Shown here: positions 2,940 through 64,000 of the stretch, piece after piece | Numbering within the stretch: position 1 is the stretch's first letter | How the letters are laid out: each line of letters opens with the position of its first letter | Source of the DNA: Octopus vulgaris | Taxonomy: Eukaryota | Assembly: GCA_951406725.2 (NCBI GenBank) | Contig: OX597821.1 | Location: 79,174,001 to 79,238,000, forward strand | Direction of reading: 5' to 3' | DNA: 64,000 nucleotides | Program-made: the position numbers and the translations under genes | The notes under the pieces: model-generated | Told to the model about the DNA's origin: nothing | The model's input: the letters and a program-made list of their open reading frames with translations, nothing else | Database searches by the model: none

Positions 2940-3011
2940 AGAAAACGTAACCTGGGCAAATCATCGAAGGTTCCTACTAGAATTTTATCGATATTATTTT
3001 CCTTCAAATAT
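2940..3011 (-). CDS. LRR exon, class A variant: YLKENNIDKILVGTFDDLPRLRF(L)
   Basis: 72 nt, cag/GTAAGT; same peptide ends ORF 2936..3166. Confidence 0.92.
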
Positions 3012-4099
3012 CTGTAACAGAAAATGATAGTTGATGTGATTACGTAGAGAAGAGTATCATTGTAAAGTATTATCATCAGCGAAATGATTTTGAAATTGAA
3101 TTTTAGATTATTAGAAAACGTATAGAAATGTTTTCTGATTAAATGTAAAATATTATTGTTAAACAATTACTTGTTTGAGGAGAAGAGAAGTAGATGAGAA
3201 AGGAGATGATGTTAAAGTTAGTGATGATGAAACGATGAGATTAGCGATCAAAGAAAAGGAAATATTGCAAAAAATGAAGCGAAAGTTGAAACGTCGGGCT
3301 GAAAAATAATTGAAAATTGTAAGGAGATGGTGAAGAAAGAAGGTAAAAAAAAGAGTACGGATAACCAGAATATTATGAATAAGATTAAAATGATAAGCAG
3401 CAGTAAAAATCTAGTCGAATTAAAAAACGTGAAAAAGGTGCATAAAAGTAGGCAAATAATAGAAGAAGAAGAAGAAGAAGAAGAAGAAGAAGAAGAAGAA
3501 GAAGAAGAAGAAGAAGAAGAAGAAGAAGATGATGATGATGGTAATCAGTGGTGATGGAATTGTAAACACCTTACATGATATGCACGTTGAATTACACATA
3601 TATGTTGATAAACGCGCATGAAGAGAGGGGATGATTATGGTAATCAGTGGTAATAGAGACGTAAACACTCGCCGAATTACACATACATACACACATTTTG
3701 ATAACCTCGTATACACTCAACATAAACATACACACAGACATACATATATCCATAAACATGTTTCCCTTAATTACTACACACTCATGAATTTGAAATCTCA
3801 TAACTATGCTCGCACTCATATTCACAAACATTCGCAAACAATAGCATACACTTGGACGGACACTGGTTGTGAACAAACACAGCGACATATACATGCATTC
3901 ACTAAACTGTTACTCGCAAGTACCACGCTGTCATTATGTACCATATCTCAGAAATGGGCCCACAATCACAGATTTATAAACATGAAAACACATATATCAA
4001 AAAACGTGTGAGGGTGATTAAATGAAGTATTGGAAGAAATTTCAGATTTAGAAATATATCGTCAATGACATACTAAAAAAGAACACAATTTCAACTTAC

Positions 4100-4171
4100 A
4101 GATTTGTTAAACGGAACATATTTCGGAAGGTGTCTGTTTTGATTTCGTTGATATCATTAGAACTCAAGTCT
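4100..4171 (-). CDS. LRR exon, B/C-like: DLSSNDINEIKTDTFRNMFRLTN(L)
   Basis: 72 nt, cag/GTAAGT, no stop. Confidence 0.92.
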
Positions 4172-4976
4172 CTGGGAAATAAAATTGAGTACAGAAGGAA
4201 TTGTGAGAATATTTTGGGCAAATAATTAGATGTCAGAAGTGATGTAAAGTAGAACACGATGGTGGTTAGTTTCATGATGATGATGATGATGATAATCAGG
4301 AGGAGAAGGAGGAGGAGGAGGATGATAAAGAAGAAGAAACGATGAATAAGATGGTGCTAGCGGAAATTAAAAGCAAAATAAATATCCATGGATTAGCTAA
4401 TTTCTGATTCTGACCCACGGCCTTACCTCATCAGCAGATCATACATACAAAAAATAAATGAGATATTTATATATGCCTAAATGAAATCTATTGCACGTAT
4501 ATTTTTGGATTTTTAAAGTGGTGGGTCTATCTTCAGCATATAACAAGAAAACATTTTCTATGAGCTTATTTATGATTATCATTTATATGTAATATATATA
4601 TATATATATATATATATATATACCATTTTGTCTGGAGAGAGTCATTTTTATCTTTTCCTAAAATTTTCGTTGCGTGTTGTAACCTTTTCAATAGTTAGAG
4701 TCAAAACTATTGAAAAAGTTGCAACACGCAACGAACATTTTAGGAAAATAAAAATAAGAAGTAAGGGGAAATTTTACCGGTGAGTGTGTTAAATAATAAG
4801 GCACAAGAAAATGACTCTCCCCAGACACAACAGAATATTCTTCAACACACGAACTCATATAAAGAATCTTGCAAACTAAATCCAAAGACGAAATCTATCT
4901 ATCTATCTATCTATCTATCTATATATATATATATATATATATGGCGTGTGATTGAGTGGATTTCATCCAGATAGTC

Positions 4977-5052
4977 TTGGCTGAAGAGCTACAAATGGAT
5001 TATTGTAAGTAATATTACATTTAATTCATTAATAGCGAAACAATTGTCCCAA
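4977..5052 (+). ncRNA. Type I hammerhead ribozyme, copy 1
   Basis: ttgg-CTGAAGA-gcta...tagc-GAAA-caattg-TC-ccaa: stem I ttgg/ccaa, extended stem II, palindromic stem III, GUC site at 5046-5048. Confidence 0.8.
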
Positions 5053-60291: not shown

Positions 60292-61503
60292 CTGGAACAT
60301 AATATTAAGTTAAGAAGGAAGTGTAAAGAATATATTTGTGACAGAATATTGGCGAAACAATTAGATGATGGTTCGGGTGAAATGTATATCGCGATTATGA
60401 TTAATTCCATAAAGTTCATAGCAGCGATGATGATGTTAATGCCGATGATAATAAGGATGATGAAGGGGCGGAGGTGGAGTAGAAAGATTTTGACAGTGTT
60501 AGAATTTATAGTGGACGATATGGTAGTGAGGAATATGTTGATGAGACAGAGGAGAAGAGTATAATGGTTTGTAGGGATGACGACGAAGATGCTGATAGTG
60601 GGGAGATGTTAATTTTGATTATTCCCATAACGACGGGAATTAGCACATCTATGATGATGCTGAATATGATATTGTTTATGGTGTAAGCAGGGATAGTAAC
60701 GTTGGTGATGATGATGATAGTGTTTACGTTTCTGCATCTGATGGCAGTATTTTGTGGTAAAGAATTATGTTGATGAAGAAGGGGACCGTAATGAATTTGT
60801 TTATTCTTGAGAAAGGTAAGAATGAATATGTAAAGGACGACGGCGATGAGGATGTAGATGAGGAGGCCACAGGTTTTGTCGGCAATTTTTGTTGCTGGGA
60901 ATTACATAGGATAGGATCCTGACGAATAGAAAATCAAGAGAATGACAGAGAAAGGAGAAAATAAGAAGAAATATTGAGAAACAGGAAGTGAAATTCACGA
61001 AAGCAGAACAAAAAAGAAACGAGAAAGAATTGGAAGAAGTAGAAGTGAGATAAAATGAAGATAATGATGATAGTGAGGAATGATAATAATAATAATAATA
61101 ATAATAATAATAATAATAATAATAATAATAATAATAAGAAGAAGAAGAAGAAGAAGAAGAAGAAGAAGAAGAAGAAGAAGAAGAAGAAAATGATGGAGTA
61201 GAACATTGAAGATCAACAACAACAACCAGAATATATAGAAGATGTAAAACTCCTAATGATAATCAAAGGAGGTAGAGACCTAAACTAATTCATGATATAC
61301 AGAGTGAACTACACATAGATTTTGATATACTCGCACGCAGATATTCATAAATAAACAGACAGATTTTTACATGCACACACGCACACACACACACACACAC
61401 ACACACACACACATATATATATAATATATATATATATATATATATATATATATATATATATATATATATATATATTTCGTTTTGGGATTTGGTTGCAAGA
61501 TGT

Positions 61504-62423
61504 TGTTACGACCTGCCGTCGCTCAACTAAGACTCAGGACCCTAAGTCGAACGACGACGACTACGCTCAGTCAAATCGGAAATCCACCACAGAAAGCAGG
61601 ACTTGGCAGCGAACGCAAACCAGTAACCAACAACAACAGGAAGAGAGAGACAGCGGAAGGCAGTTGCTTACATTTAACAACAGTTTATACAATATTTACA
61701 ACATCAATTAAAACGTGATACATTTTAGATACATTTAAAGAAAAACATTTAACAGATCGTACAGAGTTAAAAGAAAAACAATCAATGGCATGCACAATGC
61801 AGAATTTGGAAAACAATCCAAATTAAAGTCTTTCTCTTTCTTTTAACACAATGCTCTTTTCCTTTTAGGAACACATCTCACAGTTCTTTTCTTTCTTTTC
61901 CACAGTTCTTTTTACAGAGTCTCTTTTCTTTTAACACACATCAAAATTCAACAACAAAAAGCATAAACAAACATTACCGCACGTTTTCTCGTTCACAAAA
62001 TCCTACTATAAGCAATCTAGCCTTCTCGCTGTCATCTCCTTTACTTCCTCTCGCTTGTCAAGTCCTCACTCCTCTCTGTCTGTCTTTCTTGCCTCGCTGT
62101 TGCCTCTCGCCATCACCGCCTTCTTGGCTGACCGTCTCTTGCCAACTGACTCCTTCTCCGGTTCTTGCTGACTGTCTCTGATCGACCCTCTCTCGCCAAC
62201 TGACCAACTAACCCCAATGCCAGCCGCATTTATAAAGGGTAGCGTTTTAATTTTTTTCTTAAACTTTCCCTGACCGTAGGGATCAAAATGCCACTTCCCA
62301 ACTCATTAACTTTTCCTTACCGGTGACAAGACAAATACCCATTACTTCTTTCTCCAGTCTGTCCGGCTCTAAACCAACGAAATTGGGTCATAGCACTTTC
62401 TCGTCTTTTTGAACTCCGCAACA
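61504..62423 (-). mobile_element. Solo LTR nested in a TA-flanked repeat
   Basis: TGTTACG...CGCAACA termini; homologous to 1799-2891; splits a repeat whose intact reverse-complement copy is at about 4810-4895. Confidence 0.65.
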
Positions 62424-62939
62424 CTACTTTATATGAGTTCGTGTGTTGAAGCATTTTCTGCTGTCTGGGGAGAGTCATTTTCTTTTATATATATATATAT
62501 ATATATATATATATATATATATATATATATATATACATATACGTTTCAACTAATTTATTTACTTAATTGTCACATACATACATATTTCAAATCTCAAGAA
62601 AGGGTCCTCACTCATATTTACACCCATGAACATACAGGGTGATCCCCCAAAAAACAAACGGAACCCATTATAATTTTATTAAATCCTAAAGAGATAGATT
62701 TCGGCGTGCATAGAAACATGCACATACATGCCCCATATGGTTTCCCTGAATGATCAAAATGTCATATATCTCATATCTACAAAATGGGCACACACTGACA
62801 CCCACAGATTCCCAAACACTAAAACCCATTCTGGGAAAGAAGTGTGAGGGAGCTTCATATGGAGGATGGCTAGATGTTACGGATTTAGAAATATATCGTC
62901 GATGAAATATATCCTATAAAAAGAAATTATTCTACTTAC

Positions 62940-63011
62940 AGTGTGTGTAAACTGGACAGATTTCGGAAGATATCGGCTTTGATTGCTGTAATATCATTTG
63001 AACTTAAATTC
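62940..63011 (-). CDS. LRR exon, class C: NLSSNDITAIKADIFRNLSSLHT(L)
   Basis: 72 nt, cag/GTAAGT, phase 2-2, no stop. Confidence 0.92.
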
Positions 63012-64000
63012 CTGGAACATAAAATTGAGTTAATATGTAATTGTATAGAACTTATGTGTAACCGAATTTGGCAAAGCAATTAAATGATGGAATCGATGGA
63101 AATCAGAACACGATGATGATTAATTACATAAAATTCATGGCACTGATGATGATGTTGATGATGATGAGGAGGAGGGGGAGGGGGAGGAAGAAGGGGAGAC
63201 ACAGCTTATGCAGAATTGTGATAGTAGAGTCGATTATAGATTGTGTGGTAGTGATGAGCGTGGTAATGAGACAGAGGAGAAGTGTCTAAGGTCTGTTGTG
63301 GTGATAACAAAGCGTTTATGTAGATTGATTATTCTGATAATGATGGGTTTAGCCTATCTATGGGGATTATGAACATGACATTGAAGATGATTATCTTAAT
63401 ATCGGTGATGATGATGGTTGTGTTGAAGATACTTCATGTGATGGCAGCATTTTGTGGTAATGAATGATATTGATGAGGAGGAGGACAATGATGAATTTGA
63501 CGATATTTATGAACGAGATATTTAACAACAAAAATTAGGAGGATGTCGCTGATGAGAACATGGACGAGAACGTCGACAATTTCCGCGTCACATGTGGTTG
63601 CGGTGTACATAGTATGGATTGTAGTAGTAGTAGTAGTAGTAGTAGTAGTAGTAGTAGTAGTAGTAGTAGTAGTAGTAGTAACAGTAGTTATTGTGGTGGT
63701 GGTGTGGTGGTGGTGGTGTTGGTAGTAAAAATATCCGTAGTTGTAAAGGAAGTGACGTTCGAGTGTATAAGAAGATTTAGCAGGGCGGGTAGAACACGAA
63801 ATGTTATACATGCCAGCACATATTCAGATTCACAGACTCACAGACTCATATTTACAGACACTCACAATTACATATTTCTATCAAAACACATTAGGAATGT
63901 AAGGAGGAACAAATATATGGTGCGAATATTAATGGGAATATTTTGAATATTTATTAGTATATTGTCAATGCAATTTTATCAACAAGATTTATCCAACTTA

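Follow-up and report, generated by a model that had tools for sequence, protein, structure and literature searches.

Does a long row of exons that each encode a single leucine-rich repeat (LRR) supply a pool of interchangeable cassettes, or does it encode one long solenoid? The question is raised by a stretch of 64,000 nucleotides (nt) of the Octopus vulgaris genome, C8:79174001-79238000, hereafter the window (C8 denotes contig OX597821.1; the genome comprises 2.80 Gb in 227 contigs). A first-pass annotation of the letters alone had reported at least 24 such exons and proposed a combinatorial receptor locus. The whole window lies inside one gene, which is an LRR receptor of the adhesion G protein-coupled type (aGPCR) close to the octopus 'group 3' expansion (Ritschard et al., 2019; PMC6408891). 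Its array comprises 50 LRR exons. As far as sequence can tell, a single long LRR solenoid is what the gene most likely makes by default; of the options that the annotation had named, its alternative of a very long constitutive LRR protein is favoured.

The receptor gene around the window

Reading 100 kb each way added 13 LRR exons upstream and 13 downstream, which brings the array to 50 exons over 130 kb, twice the length seen before; the window exons are LRR exons 14-37. The 424 kb read across the locus contain no N bases. This extension in both directions, proposed as a check by the first-pass annotation, located signal peptide, LRRNT, LRRCT and seven-transmembrane (7TM) exons. The parts of the gene are, in the order of the protein:

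1..64000 of the window, minus strand: the whole window, inside one gene
C8:79267650-79267469, minus strand: first coding exon, with start codon, signal peptide and LRRNT
C8:79258665-79238002, minus strand: LRR exons 1-13
C8:79173823-79128786, minus strand: LRR exons 38-50
C8:79124119-79123950, minus strand: LRRCT exon
C8 from 79121873 and from 79117772, minus strand: two Cys-rich Ly6/uPAR-like exons
C8:79094563-79024270, minus strand: eight SEA-like/HormR units of five exons each
C8 from 79020223, minus strand: four GAIN exons
C8:79003672-79003517, minus strand: GPS exon
C8:79000317-78962914, minus strand: five 7TM exons

Counted to the exon of the seventh transmembrane helix (TM7), the gene model has 104 coding exons over about 305 kb; its coding sequence of about 10.1 kb specifies about 3,370 residues. 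Exon phases join through all 104 exons with a single exception in HormR unit 1. All 50 LRR exons are intact and share one strand, and the run has just one LRRNT before it and one LRRCT behind it; 49 are 72 nt long and one, equally intact, has 69 nt. Antisense or dead LRR copies are absent from the 264 kb around the array, and no further LRR copies exist outside it within about 80 kb upstream and about 55 kb downstream.

The identification as an aGPCR is carried by the gene's own exons. The LRRNT exon scores 28.2 bits in Pfam (cut-off 25.8), and this first coding exon, which also encodes the signal peptide, joins LRR1 in phase 2. The GPS exon scores 57 bits against PF01825 (cut-off 22.5); it has a His-Leu/Thr site followed by a hydrophobic segment and stands directly before TM1. 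The TM5-7 exon matches 7tm_2 (PF00002) with 45.4 bits (cut-off 20.6). The TM1-4 exons are in frame, and the GAIN, GPS and 7TM exons are all open with proper splice sites. The GAIN exons are 55-77% identical with the pre-GPS region of named octopus aGPCRs. The HRM score of the gene's own exon is weak (17.7 bits, below the cut-off of 26.2). A structure model, made for a paralogue only (mean predicted local distance difference test, pLDDT, 55.5), matches 4dlo and 6v55 in Foldseek; the top matches are CD97, the Gpr126 extracellular region and ADGRG2. The suggestion of a mollusc receptor is borne out, with GPS and 7tm_2 above the Pfam cut-offs. The O. sinensis RefSeq model XP_029651540.2, with 20 LRRs, has the same domain order and aligns with the gene exon by exon.

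Six of the eight SEA-like/HormR units, 7.5-8.2 kb each, are 97.4-99.7% identical. This may reflect a very recent expansion, copy-number polymorphism or in part an effect of the assembly. In an O. bimaculoides model the SEA-like domain is present in two copies or more. Past the TM7 exon, at C8 ~78.94-78.96 Mb, there are several related exon-like segments of 68 nt on the minus strand, with one more of the kind on the plus strand; these may be repeated C-tail exons.

The repeat exons

A DNA profile made from 14 seed exons and run over both strands of the window returned 24 LRR exons, all on the minus strand. Their position weight matrix scores are 89-132, and the next-best site scores -13.5; the nhmmer E-values are 2.3e-19 or lower, and the next-best site has 4.5. 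Each exon is 72 nt long, flanked by AG and GT, and free of stops. The layout is 1 nt, 23 codons and 2 nt, therefore the introns are of phase 2; the first Leu of each LRR is split over the exon junction. The exons end in CT (21), TT (2) or GT (1) and start with A (18), G (5) or C (1). Pairwise identities are 47-93% and no two exons are identical. Apart from the strand, which it did not give, the first-pass annotation agrees with the scan on the number, length, phase, splice sites, ends and diversity of the exons, and the same holds for the missing caps: tblastn with the gene's own LRRNT and LRRCT found neither inside the LRR run.

Other early statements need to be qualified. Any join of two exons was said to keep the frame and to yield Leu, Phe or Val. 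The frame is kept, and forward joins among the 24 exons give Leu in 273 of 276 cases and Val in 3; Phe arises from a backward join only. Exons described as interchangeable are indeed compatible in frame, yet they belong to ordered classes, termed A, B and C, with a B-C-A block that occurs six times. Introns described as filled with transposable elements do contain retroelement fragments in some cases, but many are dominated by microsatellites (159 tandem-repeat rows in the window). The exons, located by the profile scan and all on the minus strand, are:

62940..63011, minus strand: LRR exon 14 of 50, class B, opens a B-C-A block
60220..60291, minus strand: LRR exon 15, class C
58580..58651, minus strand: LRR exon 16, class A
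57251..57322, minus strand: LRR exon 17, class B
54985..55056, minus strand: LRR exon 18, class C
51662..51733, minus strand: LRR exon 19, class A
48454..48525, minus strand: LRR exon 20, class B
42737..42808, minus strand: LRR exon 21, class C
41014..41085, minus strand: LRR exon 22, class A
39494..39565, minus strand: LRR exon 23, class B
37165..37236, minus strand: LRR exon 24, class C
36021..36092, minus strand: LRR exon 25, class A
31580..31651, minus strand: LRR exon 26, class B
24366..24437, minus strand: LRR exon 27, class C
23491..23562, minus strand: LRR exon 28, class A
22050..22121, minus strand: LRR exon 29, class B
19904..19975, minus strand: LRR exon 30, class C
17620..17691, minus strand: LRR exon 31, class A, closes the period-3 block
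13788..13859, minus strand: LRR exon 32, C-like
12304..12375, minus strand: LRR exon 33
8078..8149, minus strand: LRR exon 34, GT end, junction residue Val
6593..6664, minus strand: LRR exon 35, in a period-2 block, clusters with 37 and 39
4100..4171, minus strand: LRR exon 36, in a period-2 block, clusters with 38 and 40
2940..3011, minus strand: LRR exon 37

The last exon in the window ends at 63011 (62940-63011), and the adjoining exon begins 2 nt past the window end. Most window introns have a strong plus-strand purine skew, the source of which is long AAG, GAT and TAG repeats; these are often similarly placed in homologous introns. In intron 35 (window 4939-6402) a segment of about 530 bp is present three times with 99.5% identity, which is a very recent duplication. 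The stretches 27783-29603 and 44810-45527 of the window hold fragments that resemble a Penelope-type reverse transcriptase and a GIY-YIG endonuclease, and introns outside the window hold long open reading frames similar to these.

Growth of the array and selection

The order of the exons discloses how the array came about. Exons 13-31 fall into the three classes in strict B-C-A order, and in the tree each exon clusters with those three places away. For offsets of 3, 6, 9 and 12 exons the identity averages 0.84, 0.84, 0.82 and 0.83, and for the other eight offsets 0.61-0.65. Exons 35-40 alternate with a period of two, and exons 43-45 are similar to 47-49. Blocks of 1-2 kb, exon plus intron, align at 63-77%, therefore whole blocks were duplicated in the germline: the array grew by germline tandem duplication of blocks of one to five exons including their introns. 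As the exons are symmetric in phase 2, each gain or loss of an exon is frame-neutral. For 41 of the 49 LRR exons of 72 nt the nearest neighbour resides in the same gene, hence the long arrays grew largely independently. A duplication by the assembly as the source of the array was considered and rejected, since no exons are identical, block identity is about 84% and there are no gaps.

The LRR exons are under purifying selection. Within the block classes the ratio of nonsynonymous to synonymous differences per site (pN/pS) is 0.46 (0.31-0.67) overall and 0.12 (95% confidence interval 0.02-0.25) in the repeat core; for the concave face it is 0.77 (0.46-1.21). In neutral simulations, 3000 per divergence level, the full set of 19 block exons survived 5 times at 5% divergence and never at 10% or 14%. 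The last 13 LRR exons are colinear with the predicted O. bimaculoides model XP_052833813.1, the 11 LRRs listed for which match exons 38-40 and 43-50 in order with 18-22 of 23 residues.

Splicing

The splice sites of the array are uniformly strong, with the donor GTAAGT in 45 of 50 LRR exons, and the LRR introns measure 288-11,495 nt. All 1225 forward joins among the 50 exons are in frame and produce a hydrophobic junction (L 1119, I 69, M 16, V 16, F 5). A docking or selector sequence of the kind needed for a choice among exons did not emerge from a crude test which compared exact 11-mers within 300 nt on either side of each exon with the two outer introns and misses short or imperfect pairing: for the first intron no antisense 11-mer bin was shared by more than 5 of 50 exons, where controls reached 2-3, and for the last intron by more than 3 of 50, where controls reached 3. 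Flank identity falls with distance from the exon, as plain duplication predicts.

A view of LRR splicing as annotated is afforded by relatives. Three paralogues in two other octopus species have RefSeq isoforms that each lack a different LRR. Such isoforms probably rest on RNA-supported introns. For the O. sinensis paralogue XP_029640757.1, with 1208 residues against five forms of 1184, five of seven isoforms compared lack exactly 24 residues; for the O. bimaculoides paralogue XP_052833918.1, with 617 residues against three forms of 593, three of four lack exactly 24. An O. sinensis set of 525, 501 and 477 residues includes losses of 48. The longest isoform of these paralogues carries all LRRs, the others lack only one or two. 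Several skips remove unique repeats in exon register; others, among near-identical neighbouring repeats, may have arisen in mapping. LRR content does not differ within four further isoform pairs or sets, and one O. vulgaris model pair differs by 72 residues. To judge from these gene models, the pattern is one of all-but-one inclusion, not of one-of-many. Among 24 sequencing-run entries returned for the window 20 contain part of it, mostly small shares, and none of them is recorded as RNA, a result that has no bearing on expression or splicing.

Three Logan contigs of 4.0-4.4 kb (P0088, P0100, P0101) encode a distant family member of 1155 residues each and are intronless; probably they are assembled mRNA, which suggests that full-length LRR-to-7TM transcripts occur in the family.

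The paralogue family

Across the genome there are 59 matches to the LRRCT exon; C29 has 22, and C30 and C31 have 10 each. A GPS on the same strand lies within 200 kb of 42 of the 59. For 40 paired loci the span from LRRNT to LRRCT is 14-175 kb (median 40 kb), the longest possibly comprising two genes. LRR exons were counted at ten other loci, and all counts are lower bounds. A second giant array, C10:6342219-6484236, has 58 LRR matches, of which 55 are intact, and contains two identical exon pairs whose partners lie six places apart; no LRRNT for it turned up in the sequence read, just upstream of which there is a gap of 100 N. The C26 locus has at least 31 matches (29 intact), the locus at C29:15.58 has 22, two C9 loci have 9 and 7, a C30 locus 6 and a C31 locus 3. 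Between the LRRNT and LRRCT matches at C2:152.5 Mb no LRR exon was detected, the profile probably being too narrow. Broken LRR exons are encountered on C10 (3 of 58), C26 (2 of 31) and in the two C9 loci (3 of 16).

Two duplicates on C29 (16.25 Mb and 14.32 Mb) have 11 LRR matches each. They are about 88-98% alike over most aligned blocks, and their last seven repeats share 64-69 of 69 bases, yet the first four LRR exons are ordered differently, and one duplicate has two identical exons three places apart. On the evidence of these alignments the reordering is recent germline shuffling.

In the family, change is fast on the putative binding surface. Family-wide, the concave-strand pN/pS (five positions) is 1.58-1.91 (p 0.001-0.003), compared with 0.22 in the core and 0.65-0.71 at other variable positions; these values derive from 34-51 disjoint close exon pairs, chosen by identity from 148 exons of the sampled loci and the gene. 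For the gene alone the concave value of 1.03-1.19 is not above 1 (p 0.3-0.5), though two of three thresholds put it higher than the value for the remaining positions (p 0.02-0.03). Positive selection on the concave face is thus likely for the family and unproven for the window gene.

The LRRCT-Ly6 module has 31 matches; among ten looked up by name seven are from Octopus and one is from Argonauta. The supplement of PMC6408891 contains an LRR-bearing group 3 sequence from Euprymna, therefore 'octopus only' does not apply strictly. Several database models of the family have no 7TM. A convergent paralogue on the plus strand at C8:78.89-78.94 Mb has a stop in the GPS exon and a frameshift in the TM5-7 exon, the latter being nearly the same sequence as that of the window gene; it is likely a young inverted duplicate turned pseudogene. 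In the O. vulgaris model P0050 the Ly6/SEA/HormR module is joined to ankyrin repeats, which may be a gene-model fusion. P0001, P0005 and P0041-P0045 are aGPCR-family fragments which carry the names 'toll-like receptor 5', 'slit homolog', 'chaoptin' and 'decorin-like'; misnamed fragments of this sort could inflate octopus TLR or Slit counts.

Relation to known receptors

In their accessible parts, Ritschard et al. (2019; PMC6408891) describe group 3 as an octopus aGPCR expansion with GPS and adhesion 7TM in tandem clusters, i.e., 21-22 sequences over three species from fragmented assemblies, with LRRs in 5 of 22. They report positive selection on branches and no selected sites, and expression of the octopus-specific groups (3/4) in axial (arm) nerve cord, suckers, skin and gills. 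The supplement places in class B group 3 three relatives encountered here, A0A0L8FLR8, A0A0L8HDZ7 and A0A0L8GYR2. The window gene is 45-60% identical to these in the TM5-7 exon and 57-71% in the GPS exon; LRRCT, Ly6, GAIN, GPS and TM exons together match at 40-71% in pairwise comparisons. GPS, adhesion 7TM, LRRs in some members and tandem clustering are common to both. The features added here to what the available sections of that paper describe are the one-LRR-per-exon architecture, repeat numbers that reach 50 and beyond, the Ly6/SEA/HormR module and the eightfold SEA/HormR repeat; further, a single genome contains at least 59 LRRCT exons as against 21-22 group 3 sequences. A literature search, from the coverage of which most subscription journals and bioRxiv supplements were absent, returned no account of this exon architecture in octopus.

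Other identities were considered and discarded. LGRs, to which the first-pass annotation had pointed, share the feature of one LRR per phase-2 exon; the 7tm_2 match and the GPS are those of a class B and not of a rhodopsin-type 7TM. For type C LGRs and GRL101, N-terminal LDLa modules would be expected, and the first coding exon consists of signal peptide and LRRNT. A Toll-like receptor is rejected because the exons past the LRRCT lead to GAIN and 7TM, and the Slit label fails on the downstream exons. No LDLa or TIR exon appears in the gene model; the Pfam matches of a relative named 'TLR5' include no TIR, and no TIR-specific search of the locus was made.

The ferredoxin-like domain before HormR and GAIN is reminiscent of Gpr126; the Gpr126 range that it matches is, we assume, its SEA domain. 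ADGRG6 has CUB and pentraxin domains and no LRRs, and ADGRA1-3 are a small family with few LRRs. We know of no ADGRG6 or ADGRA receptor with a Ly6-like domain after a 50-repeat solenoid or with eight SEA/HormR units.

The closest working analogy, which implies no homology, is provided by the brown-algal LRR-ROCO genes. According to the accessible parts of two reports (Zambounis, 2012, PMC3341825; Teng, 2024, PMC11378527) these have phase-2 exons of 72 bp with one LRR each, exon shuffling, a diversified concave face and splice variants that differ in LRR content. The exon format (49 of 50 of 72 nt) and block duplication recur in the window gene. Germline shuffling between and within loci has its counterpart in the reordered C29 duplicates and in the block duplications, and splice variants with differing LRR content are seen here only in RefSeq models of paralogues. 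There are clear differences. LRR-ROCO proteins contain a ROC-COR GTPase, whereas the window gene encodes a GAIN-7TM receptor of the secretory pathway; Ectocarpus LRR-ROCO loci hold antisense and inactivated LRR exons, the window gene none.

Weighing the explanations

We consider the following explanation as a whole to be the best one and assign to it a probability of roughly 0.63. The locus is one giant octopus aGPCR gene, the main mRNA of which would include all LRR exons in order and encode signal peptide, LRRNT, 50 LRRs, LRRCT, Ly6/uPAR-like domain, eight times [SEA-like plus HormR], GAIN with GPS and a class B 7TM. The eight SEA-like/HormR units would hold the 50-repeat solenoid far off the membrane, and its putative concave binding face would contact a ligand on a cell surface or in the matrix. 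Binding to, or pull on, the long ectodomain could then act through GPS cleavage and a tethered agonist on a G protein, a relay that the accessible text of PMC13197933 presents as the general aGPCR mechanism. Minor isoforms may drop one or a few repeats and so shift length and register, as annotated for paralogues; the same text states that splicing commonly varies the extracellular domains of aGPCRs. Diversity would thus be mainly germline and family-wide (dozens of paralogues, exon gain, loss and reordering, a fast concave face), and splicing would add to it on a lesser scale.

Several points weigh against this explanation. That all 50 exons are present in the mRNA is something we infer from the genomic sequence. 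The colinearity with O. bimaculoides involves a predicted model and only the last 13 repeats. Two domain labels are weak. For SEA, the Pfam E-value is 0.013, obtained in an Argonauta relative, and the domain has a ferredoxin-like fold with a Z of 7.8 to 6v55, tied with unrelated folds (in the small-domain fold model, mean pLDDT 42.4, the SEA-like part alone is confident); for Ly6, the Atlas match is below its threshold. Finally, the second HormR exon of unit 1 (C8:79080420-79080519) has 100 nt while six sister exons have 101. The missing nucleotide sits in a shorter C run and breaks the frame before the 7TM, barring an error of sequencing or a skip of the unit.

If the frameshift is real the full receptor is no longer made, and the gene would yield a secreted LRR-Ly6-SEA protein or be a very young pseudogene. 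That genes of this family do die is evident from the broken LRR exons on C10, C26 and C9 and from the convergent neighbour at C8:78.89-78.94 Mb, and the several models devoid of a 7TM point in the same direction. We nevertheless regard truncation as improbable. The HormR lesion is the only one found among 104 exons and is located in a homopolymer; changes of homopolymer length are a typical long-read error. The GAIN, GPS and 7TM exons behind it are all open with proper splice sites, and skipping the entire unit keeps the frame because the units begin and end in the same phase.

What, then, of the splicing that the first-pass annotation had in mind? Combinatorial skipping as the main output, with many isoforms and LRR subsets specific to cell or tissue as proposed for brown-algal LRR-ROCO, is a more serious contender than truncation, though we still consider it unlikely. 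It can draw on the 1225 of 1225 forward joins in frame with a hydrophobic junction, on the paralogue isoforms which each lack a different LRR, and on the family-wide concave pN/pS of 1.58-1.91 (p 0.001-0.003). Yet the annotated isoforms lose one or two repeats only, four other sets show no LRR difference, and some skips among near-identical neighbours are possible artefacts; since skips that keep the frame are not removed by decay, noise at a low level would give the same picture. In the gene alone, moreover, the concave pN/pS is 1.03-1.19 and the splice sites are uniformly strong. An alternative use of the exons as cassettes, one or a few at a time, by mutual exclusion as in Dscam or by somatic assembly as in VLR, is highly improbable. 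Many paralogous, equally long and frame-symmetric exons in a row, with intron flanks that are similar near the exons, invite the idea. Dscam-type control has left no sign: antisense 11-mer bins hardly exceed their controls (at most 5 and 3 of 50 exons), introns of at least 288 nt do not permit steric exclusion, and the decay of flank identity fits plain duplication. Lamprey VLR has an incomplete germline gene with cassettes outside it, whereas here all 50 exons reside between the caps, in sense orientation and with their own splice sites, and antisense or dead copies are missing from 264 kb. The terminal repeats are position-specific and common to paralogues, the period-3 duplications impose an order, and paralogue isoforms retain nearly all repeats. 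Mutually exclusive splicing, suggested at the outset, and cassette assembly find no support here. The notion of a varying LRR solenoid survives at the level of the family, in the repeat number of paralogues, the exon order of duplicates and single-LRR skips in paralogue isoforms. The combinatorial-cassette proposal as stated has no support; a weaker form, germline shuffling plus single-repeat skipping, obtains indirect support via the paralogues.

Biological meaning

The receptor family is larger and more variable than reported, and the window gene is its 50-LRR member. In the accessible text of PMC6408891 it amounts to about 20 fragmentary octopus aGPCRs, a quarter of them with LRRs; the chromosome-scale reading has dozens of modular receptors with arrays of about 3 to more than 50 LRR exons. 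The family displays what appear to be the hallmarks of ligand-driven diversification known from algal ROCO genes. Together with the expression of groups 3/4 in nerve cord, sucker, skin and gill, described in the same accessible text, this makes it a candidate for recognition or sensing in the octopus periphery. The ectodomain of 50 LRRs and eight SEA/HormR units would be an unusual lever for aGPCR mechanosensing.

A bolder view is possible, although we hold it tentatively and with more doubt than trust: a variable-receptor system built on aGPCRs, in which the LRR solenoids of at least 40-60 loci undergo germline reshuffling, so that individuals differ, while their binding face diversifies and LRR exon skipping varies them from cell to cell. 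If true, such a system would furnish recognition codes of cells or individuals, for skin, sucker or arm-cord wiring, for the distinction of self and non-self, or for encounters with microbes. These codes would be read out on a novel signalling platform, a force-sensing tethered-agonist GPCR, in parallel to brown-algal ROCO and, in role, to Dscam or the protocadherins.

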